NCBI RefSeq assembly: GCF_036588685.1
Contig: NC_086377.1
Location: 29,264,001-29,328,000, forward strand
Direction of reading: 5' to 3'
DNA: 64,000 bases
Source: Mytilus trossulus
Taxonomy: Eukaryota
In this document: positions 1,393 through 39,000 of the stretch, piece after piece
How the letters are laid out: each line of letters opens with the position of its first letter
How positions within the stretch are numbered: position 1 is the first letter of the stretch
Position numbers and translations under genes: made by a program
The notes under the pieces: generated by a model
Database searches by the model: none
Seen by the model: the letters and a program-made list of their open reading frames with translations, nothing else
What the model was told of the DNA's origin: nothing

Positions 1393-2029
1393 AAAGGCAG
1401 GACCGAATAGAGAAGAAAAATAAAATGCAGAACAGAGAATACAAATAACAAAAAATACAGGACAACATTTTTCCTACTACACTTGGGCATGTCAATAAAT
1501 ATATTTGAAAAGAAGAATCACACTGGATACATCATAAATAAGAACTCAGACAAATGTCAAAACTTGAATACATGACATTAAGATGCTTTTGCTAAAAATT
1601 GTAGATAGTTTCAACTTTTTAAAATTATATAGTTTATGCAAATTGTAAATATTAAAGTAACATTATTCTTATTTTTTTTAATTCCATTCAGTATATCAAA
1701 TTGTGGACACATCGTAGTGCAAGAATTCATGGTTCATTTGTTTATATCAATGCTTACTATAAACCTTCTAATGAATTTAATTCAAACAGGGTTAAATCAT
1801 AGGTAAAATGTATGTATTCATACTAATATATTGCTTCATATTTAACGATGGTTGGTTTTCAAATTTTTATGAGGACATACAAAATGATCGAATTGTATGC
1901 ATTTTCGAAATTCATTTAATGTAAACCAGTTAATATATCCGGAGTTTTATTTTTTCGTCATTTTAACGAATAGTTTCAAAAAGTTCCTAGGCGAAAGTTT
2001 AACTTTTGATATAAATTGTAATACACTAC

Positions 2030-3091
2030 CTTTATCTCCTTGGGTGCCTTTGTTTCCTGTCATTCCTTTATCTCCTAACGTTCCCTTGTCTCCTTGTGTT
2101 CCTTTATCTCCTTGTATTCCTTTATCTCCTGCTGTCCCTGTGTCACCTTGTGTTCCTTTGTTTCCTGTCATTCCTTTATCACCTATTGTTCCTTTGTCTC
2201 CCTGTGTTCCCTTCATTCCTTTGACGCCTTTCATTCCTTGCATTCCTTTCATACCTTTATATCCCGTCTCTCCCTTCATTCCCTTTGCTCCTTTATCTCC
2301 TTGTGTTCCTTCTGTTCCAGCCACACCTTTGTCTCCTTGTGTTCCTTTTTCGCCAGTCATGCCTTTAACACCTTTCATACCCTGCATACCCTTCATTCCT
2401 TTATATCCTGTTTCACCTTTCATTCCCTTCGTTCCTGACTCTCCTGTTGCGCCTTTATCGCCCAAAGTACCCTTTTCTCCGGTCATTCCTTTGTCTCCTT
2501 GTGTTCCTTTGTCTCCTGATGTTCCTTTATTACCTGTCATTCCTTTGTCACCTTGTGTTCCCTTATCTCCCGTCGTTCCCTTATCGCCTTGGGTTCCTTT
2601 ATTACCTGTCATACCTTTATCTCCTTGTGTTCCTTTTTCTCCTTTCATGCCTTTGACACCTTTCATACCCTGCATACCTTTCATTCCTTTATATCCTGTT
2701 TCACCTTTCATTCCCTTCGTTCCTGTCTCTCCTGTTGCGCCTTTATCGCCCAAAGTACCCTTTTCTCCCGTCATTCCTTTGTCTCCCATTGTTCCTTTGT
2801 CACCATCAGTTCCTTTGTCTCCATCTGTTCCTTTTGATCCCTTCATTCCTTTGACACCTTTCATTCCCTGCATTCCTTTCATACCTTTATATCCCGTCTC
2901 TCCTTTCATTCCTTTAGCTCCTCTATCACCTATTGTTCCCTTTTCCCCAGTCATTCCTTTATCACCTTGAGTTCCCTTGTTTCCTGTCATTCCCTTATCG
3001 CCGGTTGTTCCCTTTTCTCCTATCATTCCTTTATCTCCCAATGTTCCCTTTTCTCCCTTATTTCCAGTCATTCCTTTATCTCCTTGCGTAC
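2030..3091 (-). CDS. Collagen exon 19 (1062 nt, 118 triplets)
   Basis: Acceptor TTTAG|GT ACG CAA; donor AAA G|GTAGTG; continuous Gly-X-Y with no Pro. Confidence 0.92.
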
Positions 3092-6000
3092 CTAAATAAG
3101 TAATGTATCATTAGCATTGCTCACTTGCCACAGGTACAAAAAACTGTGCTCCAACACAAAATTACTTCGAAATATTTAACAAATTCGTACAAACTCTCCT
3201 TCCACTAAGATATAAGAAATATATCTCAAACAATTTAAACTTTTAAGAATCAGTCAGATTTCACATAATATAAGGTAAACTACATATAATTCTCACCTTT
3301 GTCACCAGCTGTTCCTTTGTCACCATCTGTTCCTTTTGATCCCTTCATGCCTTTGACGCCTTTCATTCCCTGCATTCCTTTCATTCCTTTGTAGCCTGTC
3401 TCGCCTTTCATTCCTTTTTCTCCTCTGTCACCTTGTGTGCCTTTTTCTCCAGTCAATCCCTTATCTCCTTGCGTTCCTTTGTCTCCATCAGTTCCTTTAT
3501 CACCGTCTGTTCCTTTTGATCCTTTCATTCCTTTAACACCTTTCATTCCTTGCATTCCTTTCATACCTTTGTATCCCGTCTCTCCCTTCATTCCTTTAGC
3601 TCCTTGTTCCCCATTTGTTCCTTTATCTCCTACTGTTCCCTTGTCTCCTTGCGTTCCTTTATCTCCACCAGTTCCTTTGTCACCAACTGTTCCTTTTGAT
3701 CCCTTCATTCCTTTGACACCTTTCATTCCTTGCATTCCTTTCATACCTTTGTATCCCGTCTCTCCCTTCATTCCTTTAGCTCCTTTATCACCAATTGTTC
3801 CTTTTGGTCCTGTCATTCCTTTATCTCCTTGCGTTCCTTTATCTCCATCAGTTCCTTTGTCTCCGTGTGTTCCCTTTTCACCAGTCATGCCTTTGTCTCC
3901 TTGTGTTCCTTTCGTTCCTTTATCACCTAGTGTTCCTTTTTCACCGAATTCTCCTTTGTCCCCTTGTGTACCCTTATCTCCAAGTGTTCCCTTTTGTCCT
4001 TTAGCTCCTTTGTCTCCTTGTGTCCCTTTTTCCCCATTCATTCCCTTGACACCTTTCATTCCTTGCATTCCTTTCATTCCCTTATATCCTGTCTCTCCCT
4101 TCATTCCTTTTACTCCTTTATCGCCGTGTGTTCCTTTTTCTCCTGTCATTCCTTTGACGCCTTTCATTCCTTGCATTCCTTTCATTCCTTTATATCCGGT
4201 CTCTCCCTTCATTCCTTTTGCTCCTTGATCCCCTTCCGTTCCTTTATCTCCTACTGTTCCCTTTGATCCTGTCATACCCTTATCACCCTGTGTTCCCTTT
4301 TCTCCTGTCATTCCTTTGTCTCCTGATGTTCCTTTCATTCCTTTATCTCCTTGCGTTCCTACAATTGATAATGCATATATAAAAATATGTTGACTGAGAA
4401 ATGTATATAAGAACGGTTGTATTAAATCTTCAACTAGTCGAATAAACATTAAGCAGAATTTGAAGACTCCCTTTGTACGATTTATAAGAAATTCTGACCG
4501 AAGAAAGTAATTTAAATATTAGTATTATTCTTTTCGTTGTGAAATTCTTCATCAATTTTAGATACAAATAATACTTTAAATACATTTGTTTTACTTGAAA
4601 CTTGTACATTGTATTTAAGAAATGAATGCTTCTTTTTGAACCTGTATTGGGGTGTAAAAGCGTTGACCGAAGTACATTTTGTATGCAGCGCGGAAGCGCT
4701 AAATTCTAAAAATGTGCGCACGGTCAACGCTTTTTCAACCCTATGAAGTTACAAAAAGAAGCATGCAATTCTTATAATTACATTTGTTTAGCTAGGATCA
4801 TGAAAACACGATTTACATCAAGTTGTAATATATTTTACCTGTGCACTTTATTATGGGACCTCGTGTCTTCAGAAATGATAAGTTTTATTGTGTAATGCAA
4901 TGGCTTAATGAATAACACGTGATGTGCAGTTAGCCAATCAGAATAACGTTTTATAATGAAACAAACATCTAATGTAATTATTTAATGTTTAACTCTATTT
5001 CATCCCATCTATAGAATGTATTTGAAGATTTTGGAAAATATATAGATAAATATAAGCCTTCGTATTAACAATTATAAAACCCTATGTTCGTGTAAAAAAG
5101 ACAATTTTATTGACAATGTTGTCGTTATTCAATTAAGAATCTTGCAACTTATTCATGTAAAATTCCCTGACAACGAGCCTTGTCCAACATAGAGATATTA
5201 ATACATAATGAAGATTGTTTTACTTTTTTTCAATTTGATACTTATATTTTATATTCGAGCGTCACTGATCAGTCTTTTGTAGACGATACGCGCGTCTTGT
5301 GTATATATAATAATCATGGTATCTATAATGAGTTTATTTAGCTATTATCTTTCTCTTTTAAAAAAGACCCATTCATTATCATGACATTGAGTTATCTATT
5401 TATCAATCTTACCTTTATCGCCATCAGTTCCTTTGTCTCCATCTGTTCCTTTTGATCCCTTCATTCCTTTAACCCCTTTCATTCCCTGCATTCCTTTCAT
5501 TCCTTTATATCCTGTTTCTCCCTTCATTCCTTTGGTTCCCTTATCCCCTTGCGTTCCTTTTGACCCATCCATTCCTTTGACTCCTTTCATTCCCTGCATT
5601 CCTTTCATGCCTTTATATCCCGTCTCTCCTTTCATTCCTTTGGTTCCTTGATCTCCCTGTGTTCCCTTTTCACCAATCATACCTTTGTCACCTAGTGTTC
5701 CTTTTTCGCCTGTCATTCCTTTGTCTCCCTGTGTTCCTTTTTCACCTGTAGCTCCTTTATCTCCATAAGTTCCCTTATCTCCTTGTGTCCCTTTGTCACC
5801 ATCTGTGCCTTTCTCTCCTTTCATGCCTTTGACGCCTTTCATTCCCTGCATTCCTTTCATGCCTTTGTATCCCGTCTCTCCCTTCATTCCCTTTGCTCCT
5901 TGATCTCCTTGTGTTCCTTTTATGCCGGTCATTCCCTTATCTCCTTGTGTTCCCTTCAATCCAGTCATTCCTTTGTCTCCTTGTGTCCCTTTTTCACCCG

Positions 6001-9000
6001 TCATTCCTTTGTCGCCCTGCGTTCCTTTGCTTCCAGTCATTCCCTTGTCCCCCTTATCACCATCTGTTCCCTTATTTCCGGTCATTCCTTTGTCACCTTG
6101 TGTCCCTTTTTCGCCTTTCATGCCTTTTACCCCCTTCATTCCCTGCATTCCTTTCATTCCTTTGTAGCCTGTCTCGCCTTTCATTCCCTTTGTACCTTGA
6201 TCACCTAATGTTCCCTTTTCTCCTGCCATTCCTTTAACACCTTTCATTCCCTGCATACCTTTCATTCCTTTGTAACCTGTTTCGCCTTTCATTCCTTTCG
6301 TTCCCATGTCGCCTTGTGTTCCTTTTGGTCCTAGCATTCCTTTATCTCCCTGAGTGCCCTTGTTTCCTGTTATACCTTTGTCTCCTTGTGTGCCCTTGTC
6401 ACCAAGTGTTCCCTTTTCTCCTGTCATTCCCTTGTCCCCAGTTGTTCCTTTCATGCCTTTATCTCCATGTGTTCCTGAAATCATCAAACATGGCATTGTT
6501 CATCTAATATGACTGTTTATTGAAGAAAAAAAATCAACATTTAAAAAAATCAACATGAATAAAAATCAAAAGTTGAATGTGAAAAGAACAAAACTTTGTT
6601 TACAATTCCTTTTTTAGAAAATCTCTTGATAGCTAAAGAAATCTTTAACATCTTTTTCTATATAAATGAAGTAAAACCTTCCTTTACATATGTTCATTAT
6701 ATTTTACATAAATAAGGCCGTTAGTTTTCTCGTTTGAATTGTTTTACATTGTCTTATCGGGGCCTTTTATAGCCGACTATGCGGTATGGGCTTTGCTCAT
6801 TGTTGAAGGCCGTACGGTGACCTATAGTTGTAAATGTCTGTGTCATTTTAGTCTTTTGTGGACAGTTGTCTCATTGGCAATCATACCACATCTTTTTTTA
6901 TATATATATACAGCGGAAGAGTACATTTCTCAAATAAAGTGACTTATGTATTAAAATTCGCAAATGTAGTACGAGTATCCGATTTTCAGATTTATAGCAT
7001 TAACACATGTAATGTTTAAAAAAAATGTAACACAATCAGAAAATCCTAGACCGAATAAATTTATAAAACCAACGAATTTAATTACTTTAATCGTATAAAA
7101 AAGTATTGTTATTGAAAAGGTTTGAATTTAAGCTGACCAAAATCAATCGATTTTACTATCGGATCTGGCTTAACCTCAGAACATTAGGACACAAAGTCTA
7201 CAAGCATGGGACCAAAACCAGCGACTGCTTAACGTACAGTTGGGTGTGTATTACCCAATGATAACCAAAATACGGGATACAAAATGTTGTGTTGACCCAA
7301 CTACGGGATACAAAGTGTTGTGTTAACTAATATATGGAATAAAGTGTTCTGTTAACAAACACACAGGGTAAAAAGTTTTATGTAAACAAATATACGGGGT
7401 GAGGTTTTTTTTCCCGATCTACGGGGTAAAGGTGTTGTGTTAATTAATGTACGACCTAAAATGTGTTGTTTTAAACAATAAACTAGATAAAAAGTGTTTT
7501 TAACCAAGTTACGGAGTAAACCAATATATCAGTAAATAGTGTTATTTATTATATAGTAGACATACATGTATAAATGAATACATAAATATTTAATGGGATA
7601 GATGTGTTTAGATTTCTAGGCAAAGCTAGACACGAGTATATACAACACATATTTTATGTATTCCTTTTTCTCCTGTCATTCATTTGTCCCCAAATATTTC
7701 AAGAGCCTTCTATTCACAGTAACTTTACTTGTTAGCCAACTATTATGAAATTATCACCAGTAATAACTAATAAACTAACAGTGAGTCTATAATAAGGTTC
7801 AAATAAAATAAAATAGAATGTTTTTGAAAAAAGCGACGCATAATTTTTCACCTAACATAAATACAATTGAAATAATACCGTACCTTTTTCTCCAGTCATT
7901 CCTTTATCTCCTTCGGTTCCCTTCTCCCCTTTCCTTCCTTTGTCTCCTTGTGTTCCCACCATTCCTTTGTCACCTTGTGTTCCTTTTCTTCCGGTCATTC
8001 CCTTATCACCTTGTGTTCCTTTGTCTCCATCAGTTCCTTTATCGCCTTGTGTTCCTTTTTCTCCTTTCATTCCTTTGACTCCCTTCATTCCTTGCATTCC
8101 TTTCATACCTTTGTATCCCGTCTCTCCCTTCATTCCTTTTGCTCCTTGTTCGCCTTTATCTCCTGTCGTTCCTTTGTCACCGTCTGTTCCTTTGTTTCCT
8201 GTCATTCCCTTATCTCCTTGTGTTCCTTTGTTTCCTGTAACACCTTTGTCACCTAGAGTTCCCTTTTCTCCTTTGTCACCATCTGTTCCTTTGGATCCCT
8301 TCATTCCTTTAACACCTTTCATACCTTGCATTCCTTTCATACCCTTATATCCTTGTTCTCCCTTCATACCTTTAGTTCCTTTATCACCTTGTGTACCATC
8401 TTCTCCTGTTGCTCCTTTATCGCCAAATGTTCCTTTACTACCATCCTCTCCAGGTTGGCCCTTATCTCCGTCAGTACCTTTTTGTCCTTTCATACCTTTT
8501 ACACCTTTCATCCCTTGCATTCCTTTCATTCCTTTATAACCTGTCTCTCCCTTCATTCCTTTGACTCCTATATCGCCTTGTGTTCCTTTCATTCCTGTCA
8601 TTCCTTTGTCTCCCACAGTTCCTTTATCGCCATCAGTTCCTTTGTCACCTTGTGTTCCTTTTGATCCTGTCATTCCTTTAACACCTTTCATTCCTTGCAT
8701 TCCTTTCATTCCTTTGTAGCCTGTCTCTCCTTTCATTCCTTTGGCTCCTTTATCGCCTTGTGTTCCTTCTGCTCCTTGTATCCCTTTATCCCCTTGAGTT
8801 CCTTTTACTCCGGTCATTCCTTTGTCTCCTTGTGTTCCTTTATTTCCTGTCATTCCTTTATCACCTAGTGTACCTTTCTCTCCTGTCATTCCCTTATCAC
8901 CATCAGTTCCTTTCATCCCCTTGACTCCTTTATCTCCCTGTGTTCCTAGCAATGATAAGAAATTAATATGTAATAATGACTAGATTAACTACATTCACAA

Positions 9001-12000
9001 TGCACGGCGGCATATAGATGGTTTTTTTCAGTGTCCTGCCTATTGTATTTAACCTGTTCTTGTCCTAAACATACATGACATATTGGCCACTGGACGATAA
9101 GCAACCAACAATCAATGGCTAGGATGACAAATTTTGACTTGTATTTTTTCAGTTGTAATCTATGCCCTGCCTTTTTATATTAGTTTATCCTGACTTTTTT
9201 TACATTAATTGTTATTCTGCCTTTGTTTTGTAAAGTTGCTCATCCTGTCATTTTTTTTCAATTTTTATCCATCAAAATAAAATGAAACTCCCTTAGGGCA
9301 CGACCACCACTTTGGTGTCTTCTTATGCTGCAACACCAAAGCGGAAATAACCGAAAAACACTGTTTTACAGGACCATACAAATTAAGCTACGTTTCTGTC
9401 TTCAAATCCTTAAGAGTTGTTTATGAGAGTAATATTATTCGTATCGTCGTATCTGAATGAATTTCAAAAGAATAAAAATAAACAAGCATTTGTAATTGCA
9501 AAGCTAGATTTTTGAACTCCTTAAAGAAGATATAAAACCATGTTGTTTCTTCGACAGATATGGATATTGTTGAATGAAAAATGGAAAGAATGTGTATGAT
9601 CTATTAATGCATGACACACAACCTCTACGTGAACATAGTGAATCCTATCAATACGAAAAGATTCCTTTTGTTCTTACTCTAAGTCACAGTATGGCATTTG
9701 AGATGGTTTAAGGCTAACATCTGCATTCAAGATGTCAACCATCGGTTAAAACGTATTTTTTTAAACCTTAGACAACTCGACTTTTTTTAACTGAGTATTG
9801 TGGTAATGTTAACATATAAAGGGAACAAAAAACATAGAAATCTGAAAAGAACAGGCATAGTTTGTCTGGCAATCTTATTGTATAATACACATAATAAAAT
9901 TGATTCTTTTAAATATGTACCTGTTCCTCCTTTATCTCCTTGTGTTCCTGGCATTCCTTTGTCTCCTTGTGTTCCTTTGTCTCCTGTAGTTCCTTTTGTG
10001 CCAGTCATACCCTTGTCTCCTAGTGTACCTTTATCTCCCTTCATGCCTTTAACTCCTTTCATTCCTTGCATTCCCTTCATTCCTTTGTATCCTGTCTCGC
10101 CTTTCATTCCCTTGACACCCTTGTCACCCTGTGTTCCTGGCATTCCTTTGTCTCCTTGTGTACCTCCAGATCCTTTCTCTCCCTTATTACCGGTCATTCC
10201 TTTATCTCCTTGTGTTCCTTTATTTCCGGTCATTCCTTTGTCTCCCAGAGTTCCCTTTTCTCCCTTCATTCCTTTGACTCCTTTCATACCCTGCATTCCT
10301 TTCATGCCTTTATATCCCGTCTCTCCCTTCATTCCTTTAGGTCCTTCAGCACCTTGTGGTCCTTCCTGTCCCTTATCTCCTTGTGTTCCTTTTTCTCCTG
10401 TCATTCCCTTATCTCCTAATGTTCCTTTGTCCCCAGTATTTCCTTTGTCTCCTACAGTTCCTTTGTCTCCATCAGTTCCCTTGTCACCATATGTTCCTTT
10501 TGATCCCTTCATTCCTTTGACTCCTTTCATGCCCTGCATTCCTTTCATACCTTTATATCCCGTTTCTCCCTTCATTCCTTTAGTTCCTTTATCTCCTTGT
10601 GTCCCTTTTGTGCCGGTCATTCCTTTGTCTCCTTGCGTTCCTGTGTTAATTAAATGTAAGTTTTTCTTTTAAATCTCTTTTTTTTAAAGAAGAATTTTTA
10701 ATATGAAAACATATGTATAACTAGATGCAAGAAGCTTGTATTTGACAGTTCAATGCTGATGGCAAAACATTATGAAATAATGCTGTTTGTTAGTTTTGGG
10801 GAAAACTGTAACGACTATGCTTATTAAAAGATCGCACAATTCACAAAAGATAAGAAAGCTTGCAAAACAAATATTAAAACTAATGGTCGGCTTCAAAAAA
10901 GAGAGTAATCAATGAAGAACAAGCCACATCTCCTAACTAAGCGCTTCAATGTATATTCATGCTTAATTGTTACAAAGTATTGATAGCTTATTCATCTCTC
11001 ATGTGAAATAAGTGAAAAAAATCCATCGTGGGTAAATATAGTAGACACTTTTGTCAAGAAGGCCAAAATCATGTTACATGCGCTAATTTACCAGGGCAAG
11101 TAGTTTATGATTTTAACAGTATTAATCTTTTACAATTTACTTACCTTTGCCTCCTCCATCGCCAGGTGCACCTTTATCACCTAGTGTACCCTTTGCTCCA
11201 TTCATCCCTTTGTCACCTAGTGTGCCTTTGTCTCCTTGTGTTCCTTTATCTCCCAGTGTTCCTTTATCGCCATCCGTTCCCTTGTCACCATCTGTTCCTT
11301 TTGACCCCTTCATTCCTTTGACGCCTTTCATTCCCTGCATTCCTTTCATTCCTTTGTATCCTGTTTCTCCCTTCATTCCTTTGGTTCCTATATCGCCTTG
11401 AGTTCCTTTGTCGCCTATTGTGCCCTTATCACCATCTGTTCCTTTGTCCCCTTGTGTTCCCTTAGATCCAGTTTCACCCTTGACCCCTGCAATCGGTAGA
11501 GTGAAGTTGTTACACTGATTTTAAATATGAAAATATACCTTGCGTTAGGACCAATAAATAGTCAGAATAAAAGGTTCAATGAAGTTTTCGTATGAGACAA
11601 ATGGATGAAAACATCCTATATCATATAAAAAAAAATGTCAGTGAATAATATAAGAAAAAGTGAGAAAAAGATATAAGTTTACGAAAAACATCATTCATCA
11701 AATTAAAGAAACGGTTACTTTTAAATGTGTCATCGCCTAATAAATGGTTCTCTTAATTTACATGGTTAAAATTAAGTTCAAATCAATTCCGAAAATATCT
11801 TTACGGGTGTTCCTTTGTTGGTTTTCGTGTTCATTCCGTGTGCGAACATGTTCCTTCTAGTATTTTTTCCTGGTGCTATCTTAATATTTCATATAGTTTT
11901 GTTCATTACAACTGACAAGGAAAAAGTAGAAAATTGCAAACGAGGTGGATTATATTAAACTCGATTTTTTTTTGCTTTCTTAAATCTATAATGTTAAAGA

Positions 12001-15000
12001 TGATGAAATAGCTCATTCGCAAATAATCAAAATAATGTCATTTAGACGGCAAAAACAGTTCATGTAAATCTCACCTTTATCGCCATCAGTTCCTTTGTCA
12101 CCATCTGTTCCTTTTGATCCCTTCATTCCTTTAACGCCTTTCATTCCCTGCATTCCTTTCATGCCTTTATATCCCGTCTCTCCTTTCATTCCTTTGGTTC
12201 CCTTATCGCCTTGTGTTCCTTGTGTTCCTGTCATTCCTTTATCCCCTTGGGTTCCTTTTGCTCCAGCCATTCCTTTGTCACCTAGCGTTCCTTTTTCTCC
12301 AGTCATACCCTTGTCACCTTGTGTTCCTTTTTCTCCGGTCATACCCTTGTCTCCATCTGTTCCTTTTGATCCTTTCATCCCTTTGACACCTTTCATTCCC
12401 TGCATTCCTTTCATGCCTTTATATCCCGTCTCTCCCTTCATTCCTTTGTCTCCTTGCGTACCGATCATACCCTTATCGCCTTGTGTTCCCTTTGGTCCAG
12501 TCATTCCTTTATCTCCTTGTGTTCCTTTAGTTCCTGTCATACCTTTATCTCCCAGAGTTCCTTTATCACCGTCTGTGCCTTTCTGACCTTTCATTCCCTT
12601 GACACCTTTCATTCCTTGCATTCCCTTCATTCCTTTATATCCCGTCTCTCCCTTCATTCCCTTTGTTCCTTTATCGCCCTGTGTGCCCTTTTCTCCTAAA
12701 TCCCCTTGTGTTCCCTTTTCTCCTGTCATTCCTTTGTCTCCTTGAGTTCCTTTCAAGCCGGTCATTCCTTTATCTCCTTGTGTTCCTTTATCTCCATCAG
12801 TTCCTTTGTCACCTTGTGTTCCTTTCTCGCCTGCCATGCCTTTAACACCTTTCATTCCCTGCATTCCTTTCATACCTTTATAGCCTGTCTCGCCTTTCAT
12901 TCCCTTTGCACCTTGATCACCTTGCGTTCCCTTCTCTCCTATAATTCCTTTATCTCCTTGTGTTCCCTTCAATCCAGTCATTCCTTTGTCTCCTTGTGTT
13001 CCTTTTTCGCCTTCCATGCCTTTAACACCTTTCATTCCCTGCATTCCTTTCATTCCTTTGTATCCTGTTTCCCCTTTCATTCCCTTTGTACCTTTATCAC
13101 CTTGTGTTCCCTTCTCTCCTGACATTCCTTTATCTCCTTGCGTACCGATCATACCCTTATCACCTTGTGTTCCCTTTGACCCAGTCATTCCCTTATCACC
13201 TTGTGTTCCTTTTGTTCCTGTCATACCTTTATCTCCAAGAGTTCCTTTATCTCCGTCTGTTCCTTTCTGACCTTTCATTCCCTTGACACCTTTCATTCCT
13301 TGCATTCCCTTCATTCCTTTATATCCCGTCTCTCCCTTCATTCCCTTTGTTCCTTTATCGCCCTGTGTGCCCTTTTCACCTAAATCACCTTGTGTTCCCT
13401 TTTCTCCTGTCATTCCCTTATCTCCTAGTGTTCCTTTTTCGCCGGTCATTCCTTTGTCTCCAACAGTTCCCTTTTCTCCCTTCATTCCTTTTACCCCTTT
13501 CATACCCTGCATTCCTTTTATGCCTTTATATCCCGTCTCTCCCTTCATTCCTTTAGTTCCTTCAGCACCTTGTGGTCCTTCAATTCCCTTATCTCCTTGT
13601 GTTCCTTTTTCTCCTGTCATTCCCTTATCTCCTAGTGTTCCCTTTTCGCCGGTCATTCCTTTGTCTCCATCAGTTCCTTTGTCTCCATCAGTTCCCTTGT
13701 CACCATCTGTTCCTTTTGATCCCTTCATTCCTTTTACGCCTTTCATTCCCTGCATTCCTTTCATACCTTTATATCCCGTTTCTCCCTTCATTCCTTTAGT
13801 TCCCTTATCTCCTTGTGTACCCTTGGTGCCAGTCATTCCTTTGTCTCCCTGCGTACCTGTGTTAAGTAAAAGAAAGTTGCTAAAAAAAATATTCCCTTAT
13901 AAAAATAGATTTTGTTAATCTAAAAACGTATGTATTACTAGTTGCATTAAGACATAGACAATATATTTCTATTGAACCACAAAGTTCAATTAGTTGTCAC
14001 GAATCAGAACGTATCGAGTAGCAACTATTTATGACTTTGACAGTTCAATTATTGATTTTTTCATTTATTAGAAAAGTTTTATCGCTAAATATCATCCATT
14101 TTTATACCAATTGAAATCTCTTGACTTAAGAGGTAGTGTTGTTTGCCATTAAACATTCTCTTGACTTAAGAGGTAGTGTTGTTTGCCATTAAACATTCTC
14201 TTGACTTAAGAGGTAGTGTTGTTTGCCATTAAACATTCTCTTGACTTAAGAGGTAGTGTTGTTTGCCATTAAATATTGATTTGCTGTTATTGAATATCAA
14301 TTGTATAGTCGACCACGGATTATCGGGCACGACCTACGTACCCTTTCGAAAAAAACCTGCGTTTGCCACCCGTTTCCATGTGGTTTGTTTAATCATACTT
14401 TTTTCTATAACAGTCAATTTAATTTGACAATTTTGAGAGGGGTTTCTGTGTCCATTTTTTGTAATACTGTAAAAATTCTGGGTAGAACTCTTATGAGACT
14501 GTTTGAAAGAAAGCTCTTATTCTAATTTGGATTAATTGCCATCATATGTAGTTGATCATGAACTATACGTCAGTGTGTTCCAGGTATTCTATAGGAGTTA
14601 TGGGACTATTTTTGGGGGAGTATTGTAAGATTCATACATGTACGTTGTGAACGCAACTCTTCTAAGTTTTTTTGACATAGTTACTCTCGTATACATATAG
14701 TACATTTACCATATTGTGACATGCCCGGCGAAGAAGGATTGTTTTCTTAGGTCATGTTGACGGTTATGCTTCGACTTATTGCCGCCCTAGCATCTATCAA
14801 CAATAATTCATTCAAGAAATACGGTAGCTTAACACATATGGAAATTCACATACGGAAATTAAGAATACGGAAATTTAGAATACGGAAATTTGATGTAGAC
14901 ATCATATTGTGTGGTGTCTTTTAATTCAATTGTGCACATTTCATATAATGTTACGTAAACAAAAAGCTACTCAATATTTCTTCTTTATGCATATTTTTTT

Positions 15001-27000: not shown

Positions 27001-30000
27001 ACATTTCGTCCATGTTGTCTCCTTATCAGATCTCAACTTGCTGATCATTTTTTGCTATTTAAAGATAAAAGGCAAACATACTAAATTTTGTATGACGTTC
27101 ATTATTACTGAACTAGTTCAAATATTTGTTAAGGGGCCAGCTGAAGGACGCCTCCGCTTTCGGGAGTTTCTCGCTGCATTTAAAACCCATTAGTGGCTTT
27201 TGAATGTTGACGCTCTTTGGTCGGGTTGTTGTGTCTTTGACACATTCTCCATTTCCATTCTCAATTAAAAATGGGCAAAGAGCGATAACTCTGAACAGCA
27301 GTCGACTGACATGTTTGGCCATTCAACTTATTTGTAGATTAATAAATAAATGTTTGGTTATTCAAGCTTTAGAATTTATCTAAAATTACATTAGGATGCA
27401 AACAAAACGCAAATGATTGGTAACAATTGTTATCAAAGGGCAATAACTGAAATAAGGAGTCGTCAGAAAATTTCAACTTTGTCTTGTCTCTCGAGCTGAT
27501 CATTTCTGATATTTTGAAATTTTCTTTTTTATCTAAAATTGTTGAAGGCAAAACGTATTACAGGCAAAAATAACATACAAACCGTAAAATTTGTGATGTA
27601 CGAGCAATAACTGTTTTAATGAGTAAAGACAGATCTCAGCATAATTCACACATCTACCAAGATTAATTATCTTTCCAATTATCTCTATTTATAGCAGTTT
27701 CATGATTAAAGACACAAACATGCATTTCCCCTCATGTTCTATTTTTAGCCATGTTGAATTTGGTCAAATTGTGAAATAGAATCAGAGGAGAAAATTTGTG
27801 CAAAGTTATCGCAAGACGGGCGACGGACGTCGAGTTATAAGTCAAGCTAAATTGGCCCTTTAGGCCAGATGAGCTAACAAATTGAAATGATTAACCAGTT
27901 ACCACATCAAAACTTTGTATTTTAATCACCACACACTTTGTATTGCACGATTGCTAAGGGACGACATCAAAAGATCGAAGTAGAATAAAAAAACTTAAAT
28001 CAAATAGTTTGGGGGTGGGGTAAAGATTCTGTAAGTTTTGTATATATAAAATCGATCTTTACATATATCCCTATTGGTCAATCAATTTTTTTCCAAATTA
28101 AGTTAAGAGGGGGTGGGGGATGGTCAGTAAAAAAAATGTGTATTAAGTTTTTTATCCTACATTGAACTTTTGATGTCGTCCCTAAGAGGACAACAAATGT
28201 AAAGTTTCACTATAATTTGTGTAGCATATATCAAATCAAATATATTTACAGGCAAACACAAACACAAAGTACTGATGCGCATAGTCATACATGTAGTAAA
28301 CAACTTTATGAGCGTATAACTGTATTTACTTACCAGGTTCTCCTTTATCTCCGGTGGTGCCTTTACCTCCGATCATTCCTTTATCACCTTGTGTTCCTTT
28401 GTCTCCTTGTGTTCCTTTGTCCCCTAGAGTTCCCTTTTCTCCCTTCATTCCTTTAACACCTTTCATTCCCTGCATTCCTTTCATTCCTTTGTAACCTGTC
28501 TCTCCCTTCATTCCCTTGGTTCCTTTGTCTCCTTGTGTTCCTTTCCCTCCTGTCATTCCTTTGTCACCTAGTGTGCCTTTGTCCCCAGTCGTCCCTTTGT
28601 TTCCTGTCATTCCTTTATCACCAGATGTTCCCTTATCACCTTGTGTTCCTTTGTCTCCTTGCGTTCCCTTCATTCCTGTCATCCCTTTATCTCCGTATGT
28701 CCCTTTGTCACCATCTGTTCCTTTATCTCCTTGTGTTCCTTTCATCCCTGTCATTCCTTTGTCTCCCATTGTTCCTTTATCACCATCAGTTCCCTTGTCA
28801 CCATATGTTCCTTTTGATCCCTTCATCCCTTTAACACCTTTCATTCCCTGCATACCTTTTATTCCTTTGTAACCTGTCTCGCCTTTCATTCCTTTCGTTC
28901 CCTTGTCGCCTTGTGTTCCTTTATTTCCAGTCATTCCCTTATCACCTTGTGTTCCTTTCAGTCCTTTGACACCCTTCATTCCTTGCATACCTTTCATGCC
29001 TTTGTAACCTGTTTCTCCTTTCATACCTTTGTCTCCTTGGGTTCCCTTCATTCCTTTCATTCCCTTGTCGCCTTGAGTTCCCTTCATTCCTGGCATTCCT
29101 TTATCCCCTTGTGTTCCCTTTTCTCCATCCATTCCTTTGTCACCTTGGGTTCCTTTGGAACCTGGTGGTCCTTCTCCTCCTTTCTCACCTTTGTCCCCAA
29201 CTGTGCCTTTACTTCCTTTCATTCCTTTAATACCTTTCATTCCTTGCATTCCTTTCGTACCTTTATATCCCGTTTCTCCTTTCATTCCTTTAGTTCCTTT
29301 ATCTCCTAGTGTACCTTTCTCCCCTGCCATTCCCTTGTCGCCTTGAGTGCCACCTTGACCTTTGTCACCAATTGTTCCCTTTTCTCCTGTCATTCCTTTG
29401 TCGCCTTGTGTTCCTTTACTTCCTTTCATTCCTTTAATACCTTTCATTCCCTGCATTCCTTTCATACCTTTATATCCTGTCTCTCCTTTCATTCCTTTAG
29501 TTCCTTTATCTCCTTGTGTTCCTTTCATCCCTGTCATCCCTTTGTCTCCTTGTGTTCCTGGTGTGCCATCTGCTCCTTTGTCACCTTGTGTTCCTTTGAC
29601 ACCTTTGTCCCCAATTGTTCCTTTTTGACCAGTTACACCTTTATCTCCTTGCGTTCCTTTGTCTCCATCAGTTCCTTTATCACCGTATGTTCCTTTCTCT
29701 CCTTTCATTCCTTTGACTCCCTTCATTCCTTGCATTCCTTTCATTCCTTTATATCCCGTCTCTCCCTTCATTCCCTTTGCTCCTTTGTCTCCTTGTGTTC
29801 CTTTCATGCCGGTCATTCCTTTGTCGCCTATAGTTCCCTTTGGTCCTACGGGTCCTTTAAATCCTGTTTCACCTTTATCTCCAGTAGTGCCTTTCATTCC
29901 CTTCATTCCTTTATCGCCATCAGTTCCTTTGTCACCATATGTTCCTTTTGATCCCTTCATTCCTTTGACGCCTTTCATTCCCTGCATTCCTTTCATGCCT

Positions 30001-33000
30001 TTATATCCCGTCTCGCCTTTCATTCCTTTCGTCCCCTTATCACCTTGTGTTCCTTTGTTTCCTAAAAGTAAATTGCAGACGTGTGGATATTTAAAAGAAA
30101 TAAAAAGTGTTACACATCAGTTCTATTATTGCAATGGTTACCGGACATTTTAAAATACCAAAGTAACCAAACCAGGCACTTCATATCTGAGAAATATGCT
30201 ATATGTCGTCAATTTAAGATTGTTTTCTTACATTTTTGCATTAATTTAATTGACAAGGATCACCAGTCCCTCGCTTTTCGTCTGATATCTTTTAAATAAC
30301 TAAATTATTTTGTTTTAATGCCACGTGGCAAAGGCCTCACGGTGATTTGAGATGAAGAAATGCAATAAAAAATAAGGGCTTTTCCTTTACTGTGTGTGTG
30401 TGTATTCTTATTTTGTTCTTTTTATTTTGCTATGCAAATATTGGATTTTGTGTCATTGGTAGATACTCTAGTCTATATCATTTGTTTTTTTCTATTGTAT
30501 CTATTTTCAGCGGCTGACATCGTTTTGCTGTTAAAAAAAGAATGTTTTTTGTAACATAAGGAATATACACCCATTGGTGGCATTCGGCTGTTGTCTGTTC
30601 TATGGTCGAGTTGTTGTCTCTTTGACACATTCTCCATCTCTATTCTCAATTTTATTATTCAGTGGTATCTATAGGTTATAAACATCGTTTAAATCATTTT
30701 TTGTAGTTATGATTTCATCTTTTTTGAGGATGGATATTTCATAAAATTACTTGTTTGATTCTAAATTCCTTGATAATGAAATGTGTTTTAGAAGTCACAG
30801 AGAAAATGGACATTGTTTCCATTGAAGAGCAGTAAAAACATACTATGTTTGTGTCATTTTGGTCTTTTGTGGATAGTTGTCTCATTGGTAATCATACCAC
30901 ATTTTCTTTTTTAAATATTCCCGTTAATGTATGAAAAAAAGGTGTTTTTTGCGAAATAAAAAAGAATGTGTGTCCCGAGAAATAAAATCACCAGAACATG
31001 AGGTTGGTTGGCGATGGCTTACTTTACCTGCAATTAGTCAAAGTTTCATACTACATACCTGTTGCGCCTTTGTCTCCTGTCGTTCCTTTGTCACCTTGTG
31101 TTCCTTTTAGTCCTGTCATTCCTTTATCACCATCAGTGCCTTTGTCGCCGTCTGTTCCTTTATCTCCAGTCGTCCCTTTGGATCCTGTCATTCCTTTATC
31201 ACCATCCGTTCCCTTATCGCCTTGTGTTCCTTTAGATCCTTTCATCCCTTTGATACCTTTCATTCCTTGCATTCCTTTCATTCCTTTGTAACCTGTCTCG
31301 CCTTTCATTCCTTTAGTTCCTTTGTCTCCTTGAGTTCCTTTTAGACCTGTCATTCCTTTATCTCCTTGTGTTCCTTTATCTCCTGTCGTTCCTTTGTCTC
31401 CTTGTGTTCCCTTGTCGCCTGTCGTTCCCTTGTCACCTACTGTTCCCTTGACCCCTATTAGAATGGATGATTTAAAAAGAAATTAAAGGTCAATAGCAGT
31501 GGTGTCGTGTTTAAACCGTTCTTTATATAAAATAGATGTGGAGATGTATAAGTTATTTTACGACCGTTAAATTCATACTGTATACAAAATATTACAATGG
31601 CCTCTAAATTGCTATTTCAAAATTTGAATAGTTGCAATGTATTGAAGATGCAAATATCACTTATTGATTTCGAATGTCCGAAACGCTTTCTTTGTTAACC
31701 TTCATACGGATACATCAAAACCCGAATACTTGATATCCTCTGAATAACAAGACCTAAACATTAAACCCCGCTATATTATTTATGTATGTGCCTGTCCCAG
31801 GTCAGGAGCCTGTAATTCATCGGTTTTCGTTTGTTTATGTGTTACATATTTGTTTTTCGATTATTTTTTTTTACATAAATAAGGCCGTTAGTTTTTTCGT
31901 TTGAATTGTTTTACATTGTCTTATCGGGGCCTTTTATACATGTAGCTGACTATGCGGTATGGGCTTTGCTCATTGTTGAAGGCAGTACGGGGACCTGTAG
32001 TTGTTAATGTTTGTGTCATTTTGGTCTTTTGTGGATAGTTGTCTTATTGGCAATAATACCACATCTTCTTTTTTTTTATATTAAAAGAGTTCTGTAACCA
32101 AAGGGGATCTACAATTATCCAAAGTCTTCTGAGCTGTATATTCTTATGCTTTCATTTAGAGTGTTTGTAGTATGTGACCCATTCATAACATTTTACATAT
32201 TGATTGCAAGACTTATGGACTTTGTTCATTATTGAAGGCAGAACGGTGACCTATAGTTGTTAATGTTTGTGTTGTTTTGGTCTTTTGTAGATAGTTGTCT
32301 CATTGGCAATCATACCACATCTTTTTTATATCAAAATTTTATCGTTGTTATGATAATGTTTCAAAAGTATGTTCCGGAACAATATGGAACACAAATTATC
32401 CAAACAACGGCTCAATCTCAAAGAAGCGAATGATATGACTACATAGTTACGTTTTTTGGTTTGTTAATTTTGACGCATTTATGAATAAGATTGGTAGTTT
32501 ACAATCTGATAAAAGAACAACGATTAAATGATCCTTCCATCGCTCATTGTTGAAAGATTAACATCATTACTATAATGAAAAACTAAACTTATATATATAT
32601 ATATTGTGTCGAAGTTTGTATACTTTCCTCATTTTTCTTCTCGAAGTTGCCAAAATTATATGGTAATCCATTTCTTTGTTCTTTCATTTGTGTATTCTTC
32701 AATTTGTTTGAACATTTTTCTCTTTTTTTTATATATATAAATTGGCAATTTTTTACTTTTATTTTTTATTAATTGACAATCTTTGTATTTTCGGTTTTGA
32801 ATTTTTTGTCTTGTCTGCACTTTTACCCAATTAATAAAATTCCGAAAAAAACCCTCATACAAACACGTTCAATTTCACAGTGAATATGTGTGTCAAGACT
32901 AAGTGTACATAAAGCGATGTCGACATGTAATTTTATGATAAACTAACAATTTATTATTTTAATGATTTGATGCAGAATTCCGAAGTTGACTTGAGTATTG

Positions 33001-36000
33001 TAAGATACATAAGTGTCTTAAAGTATTAGCTGTAAGAGCCTATAAATCAGGTGTATTTCAAGCTTCAGCGATCCAATATTCCTGTTTCGAGCCGTGTATT
33101 AACGTGGTGGTTGTATTAAAATAGTTTATTAAAATAGTTTTATAGAATTAAAAAATTGGAATTATTGGTAAATAAACGTTTAAGGATATTGTACAATCAA
33201 TGTCAATTAGATATCTGTACAAACCTTTATCTCCTTGTGTTCCTTTATCCCCTTGCGTTCCTTTCGAACCAGGTGTCCCCTTTCCACCTTTATCTCCTTG
33301 TGTTCCCTTGTCACCTACAGTTCCTTTATCTCCATCTGTTCCTTTAGACCCTTTCATTCCTTTAACACCTTTCATTCCCTGCATTCCTTTCATTCCTTTG
33401 TAACCTGTCTCTCCTTTCATTCCTTTTGTTCCTTTGTCTCCTTGAGTTCCTTTAAGACCTGGCATTCCTTTGTCTCCTTTTGGTCCATCTTGTCCTATCA
33501 TGCCTTTGTCTCCTTGTGTTCCTTTATCCCCTTGTGTTCCTTTCATTCCTGTCAGTCCTTTATCTCCCTGTGTTCCTTTCTGTCCAGTTATGCCTTTATC
33601 TCCTTGTGTTCCCTTCCCTCCTGTCATTCCTTTGTCACCTAGTGTGCCTTTATCTCCCGTCGTTCCCTTATCTCCGTGTGTTCCTTTTCCTCCTGTCATA
33701 CCTTTGTCTCCTTGTGTTCCTTTAGACCCTTTCATACCTTTGACGCCTTTCATTCCCTGCATTCCTTTCATTCCTTTGTAACCTGTTTCGCCTTTCATTC
33801 CTTTAGTTCCTTTGTCACCTTGTGTTCCTGGTTGACCAATCATTCCCTTGTCTCCATTTGTTCCTTTTTCTCCTTTCATTCCTTTGACGCCTTTCATTCC
33901 CTGCATTCCTTTTATTCCTTTGAATCCTGACTCTCCCTTTATTCCCTTGGTTCCTTTGTCTCCTTGTGTTCCTTTCCCTCCTGTCATTCCTTTGTCACCT
34001 AGTGTGCCTTTATCTCCCGTCGTTCCCTTATCTCCTTGTGTTCCTTTTCCTCCTGTCATACCTTTGTCTCCTTGTGTTCCTTTGGATCCTTTCATCCCTT
34101 TGACACCTTTCATTCCCTGCATTCCTTTCATTCCTTTGTAACCTGTCTCTCCTTTCATTCCTTTGGTTCCTTTGTCTCCTTGAGTTCCTTTTAGACCTGT
34201 TATTCCTTTGTCACCTTGTGTTCCTTCCTGTCCAACCATTCCTTTGTCTCCCTGTGTTCCTTTATCCCCTTGTGTTCCTTTTGGTCCTATCATTCCTTTA
34301 TCTCCTAGTGTCCCTTTAGCCCCTATGAAATAATGTTTAATGATGTTAGAATAATATCTGTATGTCATGCATTGTTATTTGCAAGGATGTGAAAGAAGTG
34401 CTATAAGGTCCGAGTACACAGTTATTTTGTAGTGCATTTCTTTTAGACAATAAATGAAAATTTTAAAAATCCCACCAGCGCTTTCTCAATTATATTTTTA
34501 CAGTGTGTTGTACTACTTTTGGGACAAATTATATCAAAATTATGGCAAACTTCATCAGCTCTAACTCAAAATATGGACAATTTTATGTTAAGGGGGTCTT
34601 GAAATCTTTTGACAGCTTCCAAAGTGCTAGTTTTTGACCTTTTTCAGCTGGACCTTTTATTTATTTAATATTTATGACACAATTATTTTAAAAGTGTCAT
34701 TTCGACCCCCTACTTGCTACATGAGGCATAAAACATGGATAAATAAATTTGGAAGGGGTATAAAAAAAATTGGCAGGTAACACACTGTCCACACTAAGGA
34801 CTATATTTGTAAAGGACGATAACTGCATACTCGGGCCATCAATAGAAAAATAACGTTGCTCAATCTGCAGTCGATGTTAAAGTTTTCTAATCCAGTTTAA
34901 AAGCATGCAATTAAAAAAAAAGAGTCCGCAAGCATTACATTTTTATATATTACTTTTCAGTTTTTTTCATATGATATGAATTGTTTACAATTTGCAATGT
35001 TTGAAATAAAATCGGCAACATAGATTTCTTTATGACATTTACTTCTAGTATACAGATAAATTATAATCATTGTAATCAATTTCCGTAACACGTGGGTCTT
35101 TTTAGTTGTCCATTTATTTGCTTCATTTAAAGATGACCAAAATATAACCTGACATAGTATGATTATAGTCAAATTTAAAAAGATAAAAAGGAAAGGTTTC
35201 ACTGTTTTTCTTCCGTTCATGTTAAAAATATAAAATCCTTATTTGGTCCATGTTTTATTACCAACCCTGTTCAATCCAAAGTTACGATAAGTTAAAATAT
35301 ATCTATAAAATTCTGTAAATAAGCCTTTTAGTTTACCTATCATTCCTTTGTCTCCTTGTGTTCCTTTTCCGCCTGTCATTCCTTTATCTCCATCTGTTCC
35401 TTTAGCTCCTGTCCTTCCTTTGTCACCTAGTGTGCCTTTGTCCCCAGTCGTCCCTTTGAAGCCTGTCTCTCCCTTCATTCCCTTGGTTCCTTTATCTCCT
35501 TGTGTTCCTTTATTTCCCGTCATTCCTTTGTCACCTAGTGTGCCTTTGTCTCCAATCGTTCCCTTATCTCCTTGAGTTCCTTTCCCTCCTTTTATACCTT
35601 TGTCTCCTTGTGTTCCTTTAGACCCTGTCATTCCTTTGGCGCCTTTCATTCCCTGCATTCCTTTTATTCCTTTGTATCCCGTTTCTCCTTTCATTCCTTT
35701 AGCTCCTTTGTCTCCTTGTGTTCCTTTTTTGCCTGTCATTCCTTTATCTCCATCTGTTCCTTTAGCCCCTGTCATTCCTTTGTCACCTAGTGTTCCTTTG
35801 TCCCCAGTCGTCCCTTTGTTTCCTGCCTCTCCCTTCATTCCCTTGGTTCCTTTATCTCCTTGTGTTCCTTTCCCTCCTGTCATTCCTTTGTCACCTAGTG
35901 TGCCTTTGTCCCCAATCGTTCCTTTGTTTCCTGTCATTCCTTTATCACCAGCTGTTCCCTTATCGCCTTGTGTTCCTTTTGCTCCTTTCATTCCTTTTAC

Positions 36001-39000
36001 ACCTTTCATTCCCTGCATTCCTTTTATTCCTTTGTAACCTGTCTCACCTTTCATTCCTTTAGTTCCCTTGTCACCTTGCGTTCCTATTTGACCTATCATT
36101 CCTTTGTCACCTTGCGTTCCTTTTTCGCCTGTCATTCCTTTGTCTCCTTGTGTTCCCTTGTCACCGATCGTACCTTTATTTCCTGTCATTCCTTTATCGC
36201 CTAGAGTGCCTGGGTTTCCGTTCATTCCCTTTTCACCTTTATCTCCTTGTGTTCCTTTCGTTCCTGTCATACCCTTATCCCCATGCGTTCCTTTGTCTCC
36301 TTGTGTTCCCTTATTTCCAGTCTCGCCTTTATCTCCGTGCGTTCCTTTGTCGCCAGAAGTTCCTGAAAAATTAAGGTTAATGTTACATGTACATGAGTTG
36401 TTTACACTATGAAAGTGTATTACAATCAATATATTAAAAAATATAATAAAGTAAAACCACGTGATTGCAGAGTATCAAATACGCTGACCATTTGTTATGT
36501 TGTTTGCACGTATTAAAAGAATATGGGTGGAGGTACTTTTTCCTATTTAGACATGTGTAGAGAAAGCCGTGTGTGGATTATTTTTGTATATGTTTTGTGT
36601 AAATACACAACTGTTTTATTAATACAGGTTGTTTTTAAATTATATATGCTACACTTTTTATCCCTTTTTACCGGAGTGGTATGAGCGAAATATAATTTGG
36701 ATTAAGTCGTGTATCAAACAAATTTCAAAAGTTGGGCCTAACTGACTTAAAATTAGGAGCCAACTGAAGTCACGCTTCAGTGACCGCACAAAAGGGGTGG
36801 ACCCTGCCCCTCCCCCTAGATTTGCCTCTGGGATTCGCTTATGATACTGATTACAACCTGTATACATTGTAGTTTTTAATCTGTTTAAAACAAATTTTAA
36901 AGTACCGAATAAATTTTTGAGGAAATGTCATGTTATATATCATTTTATTTCGTATACTAGTATCTTAAAAAGAAAAATACTACTGTTTGATAATCTTTTG
37001 TTCTGTCTTCTTTGTGTTAAAGTTTAAAACATCTACCAACGATGGTAAAGGAAAGGTCTCTTTTCAAGCCTCCATATTGGATTTTAAATAATCAGTGAGG
37101 AACTACAGACAACCTTTAAACTTTAATAGTATTTATTGAAAATCAGGTGCGGAGGCCAGAGAAGCGACATTTATTAATAATATCCACAATGTAGTACAAT
37201 TTCAGCCTTTATGAAAGTACGAATTTAAAAACTTTATACTGTTGTAACTTGTAAAGCGATATCGACTGATTCATCATAAAAGTCACGTAAAAAGACATGG
37301 AGACCTAAGCTAAATCTAAAGTAACCAACCGTGTAAAAAACATACCTTTAGATCCTTTATCTCCCGCCATTCCTTTGACGCCTTTCAATCCCTGCACTCC
37401 TTTAATTCCTTTATATCCCGTTTCTCCCTTCATTCCTTTTGTTCCTTTGTCACCTTGTGTTCCTTTATTTCCTGTCATTCCCTTGTCCCCTTGGGTTCCC
37501 TTCGAACCATCTTTACCATCCTCGCCGTTTACACCTTTGTCACCTTGTGTTCCTATTGCTCCTTTGTCGCCTTGCGTTCCTTTATCTCCGGTTGTTCCTT
37601 TGTCGCCTTGTGTTCCTTTATTTCCTATCGCTCCTTTGTCTCCTTGTGTTCCTTTATTTCCTGTCGCTCCTTTATCGCCTTGTGTTCCTTTGTTTCCTGT
37701 CATTCCTTTATCACCTTGTGTTCCTTTGTTTCCTGTACCTCCTTTCATTCCCTTATCGCCTTGTGTTCCCTTGTCTCCTGACGTTCCTTTGTCTCCTGTA
37801 GTACCCTTATCTCCTGTTGTACCTTTATTTCCAGTAAATCCTTTGTCGCCTAGTGTTCCTTTCATTCCTTTGACGCCTTTCATTCCTTGCATACCTTTTA
37901 TGCCTTTGTAGCCCATCATTCCTTTCAATCCTTTGATTCCTTGTGTTCCCTGTATTCCTGCCATTCCTTTGTCTCCTTGTGTACCCTTGTTTCCTGTCAT
38001 TCCTTTATCACCTTGCGTTCCCTTGTCTCCTTTTATTGCTAAAAAGAAAAAGAAAACGATTTTATAACACGGTACGTTCTATAAACTAACGGAGCTCAAG
38101 AAAGGGAACATAAGATTAAAATTGTCTTTTAAAGAATACAGAATGATTCATTTATATGGTTTGTTCTATACCACATTTTGTTTTAAGGAAAAGTAAAATC
38201 ACAAAAATACTTAACTCCGCGGAAAATTCAAACGGAATATTCCTATCAAAATGGCAAAATCAAATGATAAAACACATCAAGCGAATGGACAACAACTGTC
38301 ATATTCCTGACTTGGTACAGGTAGAAAATTGTGGATTGAATCTGGTTGTATAGCGCTAAACTTTTCACTTGTATGATAGTCACATCAAATTCCATTATAC
38401 CGGGGTATTTAAAACGATGTGTAAACACAACAGACAAGATAGGTAAATTAGTCACAATATGGGTACATCAGTAAGCATTGTGTCACAATATGGGTACATA
38501 AGTAATCATTGTGTCACAATCTCATAACAAACGATGTAATCTACTTCGTTGTTTGTCTGTATATATATAAAAAAAGAAGATGTGGTATGATTGCAAACGA
38601 GACAACTGTCCACATGAGACCAAAATGACAAAGACATTAACAAGTATCGGTCACCGTACGGCCTTCAACAATGAGCAAAGTCCATACCGCATAGTCAGCT
38701 ATAAAAGGTTCCGATATGACAATGTAAAACAATTCAAACGAGAAAACTAACGGCCTTATTTATGTACAAAAATTGAAGGAACAAAATGTAACACATAAAC
38801 AAACGACAACAACTGAAATTCAGGCTCCTGACTTGGGACAGGCACATACATAAATAATTTGGTGAACATTTGCTAGTTTGTAAATGATTAACTTGTACTA
38901 GCATTATGGCTGTACAGAGTCATGTAATCTGGTTCGTTGTTAGTTTGTATATGAACATTTGCTATTTTTTAGATGATTTACTTGTACTAGCATTATGGCT

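Follow-up and report, generated by a model that had tools for sequence, protein, structure and literature searches.

The 64,000-nucleotide (nt) stretch of Mytilus trossulus DNA analysed here, hereafter the window (C5:29,264,001–29,328,000 of a 1.30-Gb genome), carries one spliced gene of 27 exons on the minus strand, which encodes a giant collagen-like chain and extends 14 kb past the window edge. The original prediction had placed about 59 cationic Met/Tyr cassettes, alternating with variable spacers, at positions 2030–38038. The count proved accurate: the Gly-X-Y runs in this range form 16 blocks, each an exon and all on the minus strand, and contain exactly 59 GYK triplets in Gly-X-Y register. 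The limits, in contrast, have to be abandoned, as the range covers only exons 3–18 and the whole gene contains 79 GYK cassettes. When the flanks were scanned (80 kb on the left, 60 kb on the right), six more collagen blocks were found on the left and none on the right. The gene is laid out as follows, in window coordinates except where C5 is given:

44631..44700, minus strand: coding exon 1, with the start codon and a stretch of about 19 residues that by eye resembles a signal peptide; covered by contigs, no joint among those listed
42952..43071, minus strand: exon 2, a short N-terminal piece rich in His and Tyr, in which the first Gly-X-Y triplets and four N-glycosylation sequons occur; single copy
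37346..38038, minus strand: exon 3, 77 codon triplets (76 within the unbroken run), 2 cassettes; intron 3 spliced in 3 runs
35337..36362, minus strand: exon 4, 114 triplets, 2 cassettes
33225..34322, minus strand: exon 5, 122 triplets, 3 cassettes and one GFK variant
31059..31454, minus strand: exon 6, 44 triplets, 1 cassette
28334..30061, minus strand: exon 7, 192 triplets, 7 cassettes
24171..25574, minus strand: exon 8, 156 triplets, 6 cassettes
22535..23164, minus strand: exon 9, 70 triplets, 3 cassettes
20206..21339, minus strand: exon 10, 126 triplets, 4 cassettes
17318..17659, minus strand: exon 11, 38 triplets, 1 cassette
12075..13856, minus strand: exon 12, 198 triplets, 8 cassettes
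11145..11486, minus strand: exon 13, 38 triplets, 1 cassette; match to Pfam Collagen PF01391 (E 1.5e-19)
9921..10640, minus strand: exon 14, 80 triplets, 3 cassettes
7884..8945, minus strand: exon 15, 118 triplets (1062 nt; first of six exons of equal length), 4 cassettes
5413..6474, minus strand: exon 16, 118 triplets, 5 cassettes
3297..4358, minus strand: exon 17, 118 triplets, 5 cassettes
2030..3091, minus strand: exon 18, 118 triplets, 4 cassettes
1..2029, minus strand: intron 18, which leaves the window
Beyond the window, within C5:29,249,683-29,263,014, minus strand: exons 19–24 (118, 118, 36, 126, 17 and 138 triplets), with 20 further cassettes
Beyond the window, within C5:29,249,683-29,263,014, minus strand: exons 25–27, three small exons encoding a tail of 99 amino acids (aa) and the stop codon

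All 22 collagen exons (153–1,782 nt) are of phase 1, have GT-AG borders and lengths that are multiples of 9 nt, and the Gly register runs unbroken through each of their junctions. Together the exons make up an open frame 7,005 codons long (model length 21,018 nt); the acceptor of exon 3 possibly lies 9 nt further in, at 38029. The gene is single-copy: both end exons occur once in the genome, and a collagen exon matches the rest of the genome far less well (best E 1.6e-17, 56% identity, with 150 of 495 candidates scored). Hidden small Gly-X-Y exons were looked for in the introns and none were found. The introns are not copies of one another except for dispersed repeats. A weak upstream match to the N-terminal piece (E 0.004) was rejected, as it sits in unrelated sequence.

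Small shares of the stretch are present in 19 coded sequencing runs, none recorded as RNA, and splicing was followed in contigs of four runs per stretch examined. Splice joints were seen for six of the nine introns in the two stretches examined (four studies, each joint in three or four). Contigs join intron 3 in three of four runs, introns 22 and 23 in three of four, and introns 24–26 in all four; the intron-22 joint has the predicted length of 407 nt, with its cut position shifted. No joint for introns 1, 2 or 4 is among those listed, and run X16 has nearly no cover of the collagen exons, from which nothing follows in either direction. Intron 26 contains a candidate exon that all four runs skip, and a joint that skips exon 23 and part of exon 24 was discounted, repeats having probably cross-mapped. 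The acceptor and the first part of exon 25 have a near-duplicate about 110 nt upstream (L002:9050-9100, minus strand); the RNA contigs use the downstream copy. At least 51 exonic differences between genome and RNA contigs are listed, some of which may reflect mis-mapped repeats. Among those listed, all nine in Gly codons are synonymous, those in the tail comprise six synonymous and four replacement changes, and those in spacer X/Y codons 10 synonymous and 21 replacement changes; only one of the 51 falls in a cassette. Indels in the last exon total multiples of three.

The modelled chain has 7,005 aa, a mass of about 683 kDa, an isoelectric point (pI) of 9.8 and a net charge of +544, and belongs to the collagen superfamily by its Gly-X-Y repeat and its PF01391 match. 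Gly occupies each third residue from 67 to 6,906, i.e. 2,280 triplets, 22 of which have a second Gly and would count as interruptions by the criteria in an excerpt of PMC11923368. The helix consists of 19.3% Lys, 12.2% Thr, 8.4% Asp, 8.4% Met, 1.3% Tyr and just 0.6% Pro; Lys accounts for 57.7% and Thr for 12.7% of the Y positions, Met for 24.9% and Thr for 23.9% of the X positions. With a triple-helix rise of 0.286 nm per residue, a rod of 1,956 nm is predicted from sequence alone. The 99-aa tail contains 14 Tyr, 12 Lys, 10 Thr, 6 Arg and 5 His, exon 2 encodes four His and four Tyr, and the only two Cys of the whole chain are both within the first 25 residues. The signal-peptide-like start and the four sequons, read by eye, suggest that the protein may be secreted. 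The Gly register and the conservation of exon lengths described below likewise point to a likely triple helix.

The cassette had been described as a near-invariant motif of nine triplets. That full motif is exact in only 36 of the 59 copies first counted, but a seven-triplet core, GMK-GET-GYK-GMK-GMQ-GMK-GVK, is exact in 61 of the 79 cassettes of the gene and has at most one mismatch in 71; the two edge triplets are more variable. Lys and Gln are each retained in 79 of 79 cores, and anchoring on G[MV]Q, which does not depend on Tyr, yields 80 cassettes, 79 with GYK and one with GFK. Cassettes follow one another at irregular intervals of 28.8±10 triplets (about 25 nm) and contain 17.8% Met, compared to 4.1% in spacers. 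The spacers, 3–49 triplets long, had been expected to be near neutral or acidic. They are near neutral (mean net charge +1.2), but most are not acidic: of 78, 18 are negative, 15 have zero charge and 45 are positive.

Synonymous sites vary freely among the cassettes, in agreement with the original prediction: 77 of the 79 cores are distinct in DNA and encode only 15 peptides. Over all pairs of the 79 cores, the proportion of synonymous differences (pS) is 0.565 and that of nonsynonymous differences (pN) 0.022, with a ratio of nonsynonymous to synonymous rates (dN/dS) of 0.022. When the GYK anchor is left out, cassette pN/pS is 0.046 (bootstrap 0.024–0.071). In spacers it is 0.29, whether all pairs or only 54 best-partner pairs are compared, a value that is approximate because it comes from gapped alignments of 66 of the 78 spacers (those of at least 10 triplets) and not from true orthology. 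pN is 0.026 in cassettes versus 0.15 in spacers and climbs sharply outside cassette positions -2 to +4. The cassettes are under purifying selection: rather than the equal dN/dS that had been named beforehand as the contrary outcome, their pN/pS is about six-fold under that of the spacers, which are themselves constrained too. Similarity of cores barely falls with distance, neighbouring cassettes being slightly closer (6.4 versus about 8 differences).

The distribution of charge also separates the two kinds of block. Salt bridges of the triple helix can connect Lys(i) to Asp/Glu at (i+2) and at (i+5) (PMC11923368, in the part available). Lys–Asp/Glu pairs at i+5 are enriched in the mussel chain, with 626 found versus 405±11 in 500 triplet shuffles, and 569 triplets are of the GDK/GEK type. 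When acidic partners were counted in any of three arrangements (i+2, i+5 or the same triplet), 335 of the 530 Lys/Arg residues in the Y position of cassettes had no acid nearby, compared to 17 of 793 in spacers. This concentration of unpaired Lys in the cassettes upholds the block design that had been proposed for the protein.

Exons 15–20 are each exactly 1,062 nt (118 triplets) long and differ in content: their ungapped identity is 0.55–0.71, and the best alignments need 7–24 compensating gap triplets per side. Six equal lengths among 22 exons have a probability of about 3e-5 under a rough null (even lengths only). These exons are probably old duplicates whose contents have been reshuffled at constant length, because they share more 30-mers with one another (0.032) than with the other exons (0.014). 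At a distance of 1 Mb, two Pro-poor collagen genes in tandem have in common the exon series 19, 38, 38, 50, 10, 28, 10, 24, 14, 63, 19, 30, with 21–37% X/Y identity in the matched exons compared. From conserved exon lengths combined with divergent contents, we infer selection on chain register, as a real triple helix would predict.

The explanation that we favour, with slightly more confidence than doubt, is that this spliced gene encodes a homotrimeric secreted rod of about 2 µm, independent of hydroxyproline (Hyp), in which the cassettes act as register-dependent cationic nodes for binding or cross-linking. The helix, almost without proline, would be held together by Lys–Asp/Glu pairs within a two-triplet spacer unit of the GTQ-GDK type, perhaps aided by glycosylation of Thr or hydroxylysine. 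Every 29 triplets or so, the three chains would form a patch of 6–8 nm in which three Tyr and about 14 Met stand beside many Lys that lack an acid to pair with. Such a cationic and hydrophobic patch could bind polyanionic components of the matrix or neighbouring rods and, like the Tyr/Lys-rich tail, could then be fixed by oxidative Tyr/Lys cross-links. Because all three chains would contribute to each patch, selection would act against any length change that displaces the register, so that exon lengths would be kept while contents were shuffled.

Several observations weigh against this explanation. The tail shows no recognisable trimerisation domain, and the two tail exons scanned gave no Pfam match. 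Cassette positions show no periodicity (peak power 3.7 versus a permutation mean of 4.8), which argues against an ordered cassette-to-cassette lattice. The i+2 pairs (KGD/KGE) are depleted, with 128 found versus 405±11 in 500 triplet shuffles; at 5.6% of triplets they are ordinary in absolute terms and low for the composition, so the stability of the helix is not assured, and charge pairing within the same triplet is a weaker geometry. Moreover, 85 of these 128 pairs lie in cassettes, mostly as the opening K-G-E, which fits a folding role for the cassette. Tyr is no more conserved than its Lys and Gln neighbours, so selection does not single out cross-linking. Joints leave 20 of the 26 introns unconfirmed. 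Finally, whole-exon duplications, which also shift the register, were fixed, and the register argument leaves this unexplained.

A folding role is central to the alternative in which the giant triple helix is retained and the cassette serves stability or folding, as a periodic clamp or a site of hydroxylation or glycosylation, and not as a binding node. We regard it as unlikely, if deserving of real weight. Each cassette opens with K-G-E, pairs of the i+2 type slow unfolding (PMC11923368, same part), and all cassette positions are about equally conserved. However, the remainder of the cassette is a like-charge run that has no acid and should destabilise the helix, and the presence of Tyr in 79 of 80 copies and the enrichment of Met would find no explanation. 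At the other extreme, the chain might never form a stable triple helix and instead gel or coacervate as a polyampholyte that is disordered or of the polyproline-II type. The near absence of Pro/Hyp, the shortage of i+2 pairs and the net charge of +544 would suit such a protein, which nevertheless appears quite improbable in view of Gly at each third residue for 2,280 triplets and through all collagen-exon junctions, and of collagen exons that are all multiples of 9 nt with lengths conserved both here and in related genes. Copying of segments does occur within the gene, as 16 exact repeats of 60–116 nt in the coding sequence demonstrate, and the slightly greater likeness of neighbouring cassettes is in line with it. 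The idea that recent tandem duplication, gene conversion or an assembly artefact produced the near-identity of cassettes that have no special function is nonetheless hardly credible, being already contradicted by the divergence of the cores, whose synonymous sites are near saturation and 77 of 79 of which differ in DNA, and by the difference in pN between cassettes and spacers; nor are the introns mutual copies apart from dispersed repeats.

The original prediction had also pointed to the chemistry of mussel adhesion, in which Tyr-Lys pairs are converted to 3,4-dihydroxyphenylalanine (DOPA)-Lys, and a byssal adhesive or tanning protein of the foot, active in adhesion or quinone curing, is a further, rather improbable alternative. 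The host is a mytilid whose genome contains an Mfp-3 cluster (20 matches above the Pfam cut-off, compared to none in 14 control genomes), the protein is basic, the glue of Geukensia contains Gly-DOPA-Lys, and the His/Tyr-rich and Tyr/Lys-rich ends recall the His/DOPA-rich ends of byssal preCols. The analogy is weak, however, as Tyr accounts for only 1.3% of the helix, whereas DOPA is listed at 20–30% in Mfp-3f/Mfp-5 and at 0.1% in preCols (excerpt of PMC9999432); furthermore, preCol flank domains are absent, and nothing in the searched literature on byssus, foot or shell could be recognised as this protein. The byssal preCol-D, -P and -NG share with it the mytilid host, a collagenous, block-like and basic character and ends that contain His and Tyr. 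According to the same excerpt, they are trimers of 230–240 kDa with frequent Pro/Hyp, silk-, elastin- or Gly-rich flanks and His/DOPA-rich ends (PMC9999432), whereas the mussel chain alone has 683 kDa, 0.6% Pro, no flanks, and its blocks inside the helix.

Analogies with the cross-links of collagens I and IV could not be maintained. GMKG, which had been likened to the cross-linking Lys of collagen I, occurs 304 times in the chain and KGHR not once, the fibrillar cross-link motif being given as GXKGHR (PMC6249252, in part). Sulfilimine bonds of the collagen IV type join globular NC1 domains (excerpt of PMC13098435), and the mussel chain has no NC1 and only two Cys. Fibrillar collagens I–III and collagen VII, its lead database matches (27–43% identity), share long Gly-X-Y runs but reach about 340 triplets at most, are Pro-rich and have COLFI or vWA/FN3 domains, none of which is present in the mussel chain. 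Fibrillar collagens have exons of the 54-bp type in phase 0 and about 338 Pro/Hyp-rich triplets, compared to 2,280 triplets and phase-1 exons of 153–1,782 nt here. No COLFI propeptide was found in the 99-aa tail, whose spliced end is seen, with no Pfam match in the two tail exons scanned. The gene thus lacks the distinguishing features of fibrillar collagens, of collagen IV and of preCol flanks.

By analogy, the protein may work most like the giant cuticle collagens of annelids or the charged collagens of bacteria. With the cuticle collagens of Riftia, Alvinella and Nereis, which are 1.5–2.4 µm long, it shares a very long (here predicted) triple helix, high mass and varied composition; the mussel chain differs in having mainly Lys (58%) in the Y position, Met-rich Tyr cassettes and tiny end domains, and no cuticle collagen of annelids appeared among the matches listed for exons 7, 12 and 13. 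In Riftia, helix stability has been tied to glycosylated Thr rather than to Hyp (PMC11766948, in the part available). Bacterial and viral collagen-like proteins, such as Scl2 and the GDK/GEK-rich types of giant viruses, share its Hyp-independent charged and polar Gly-X-Y repeats, and Hyp-free bacterial triple helices reach melting temperatures of 36 °C (excerpt of PMC8968730). The nearest Atlas clusters are likewise Collagen-repeat proteins, bacterial where taxa are recorded. Unlike these, the mussel gene is a spliced animal gene in which KGD/KGE is depleted and not enriched, and the best identity of 56% reflects shared composition. At 7,005 aa its chain exceeds the upper figure of 6,000 aa for bacterial collagen chains; the longest human helical domain has 1,380 residues (both figures from the excerpt of PMC11923368).

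Database searches returned no closer relative. The last exon had no homologue among proteins of 110–2,000 aa, and exon 12 (versus 326–1,040 aa) and exon 7 (versus 1,009–2,880 aa) retrieved generic collagens only, with 7,979 candidates scored each. A phmmer search with exon 13 against 1.84 billion representatives gave 56% as the best identity among the 150 matches listed. The cassette is absent from all 379 fetched proteins, two of which carry one six-residue piece of it, and the longest unbroken Gly-X-Y run among them has 342 triplets. Because the length-bounded searches ended at 2,880 aa, a longer public Mytilus gene model is possible. The 'MGK-rich' and 'LGDK-rich' shell proteins of PMC4517812 were considered and set aside, having no GMK or GDK in five supplements. 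No description of the gene was found in the literature, subscription journals and bioRxiv supplements being outside the search.

Other Pro-poor, Lys-rich collagen-like genes are present in the genome. The tandem genes mentioned above, GDK/GEK collagens at C5:28.28 and 28.32 Mb, resemble the giant gene in having exons of phase 1 whose lengths are multiples of 9 nt and strictly conserved. They have 38% Lys in the Y position, 5% Pro and, as far as they were read, about 350 triplets each, but no cassettes and no detectable end domains in common with it. The products of this pair (C5:28.276-28.321 Mb, L016-L021) may assemble with each other into one heterotrimer. Additional collagen-like exons that are poor in Pro and rich in Lys lie on C5 and C3 (L026:4749-5540, minus; L027:5652-6110, plus; L028:5165-5749, plus; L032:4720-5349, plus), so that the composition is shared across a family in this genome. 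At C11:46.22-46.31 Mb, three exons of about 1,000 codons (L023:3070-6099, plus; L024:4143-7043, minus; L025:3198-6101, plus) are almost pure Gly-X-Lys, led by GYK, GQK, GNK and GFK, with 33–47 GYK in the longest run of each. These highly cationic, Tyr-rich collagen-like genes suit the DOPA-Lys idea better than the giant gene does.

In the surroundings of the giant gene, an open frame of 1,909 codons rich in Gln, Asn, His and Pro lies about 6 kb past its 3' end, tail to tail with it (L003:3777-9506, plus strand); it contains two blocks of repeats, has a single Cys/Trp motif close to its end and gave no Pfam match. Two tandem repeat arrays lie in intron 2 (window 38860-40800) and one upstream of the gene (53646-54440). 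A weak remnant of a Mutator-like element (MULE) transposase, under the Pfam cut-off (E 0.009), was detected at window 52102-52473 on the plus strand.

The prevailing view is that animal triple helices depend on Pro/Hyp and on salt bridges of the KGD/KGE type. The mussel chain would be the longest unbroken collagen helix of an animal so far read from sequence: a homotrimer of 2 µm that does without hydroxyproline and without the usual KGD/KGE code, uses a two-triplet charge-pairing code instead, and carries within the helix 79 register-locked Met/Tyr/Lys cross-link nodes, with selection on register freezing the lengths of its exons while their contents are reshuffled. We advance this fuller claim tentatively and consider it possible rather than probable. 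As the searched protein collections apparently lack it, mussel proteomes that rely on these would have missed the protein. Its two short repeat modules need no prolyl hydroxylase in principle and could be made as peptides or in Escherichia coli, and the gene may serve as a model for block copolymers of collagen that already contain their cross-link sites. As an animal collagen on the micron scale with only 0.6% Pro and a shortage of KGD/KGE, the chain would be a natural test of how triple helices fold and persist, and the gene would provide a sequence-level counterpart to the giant cuticle collagens of annelids.

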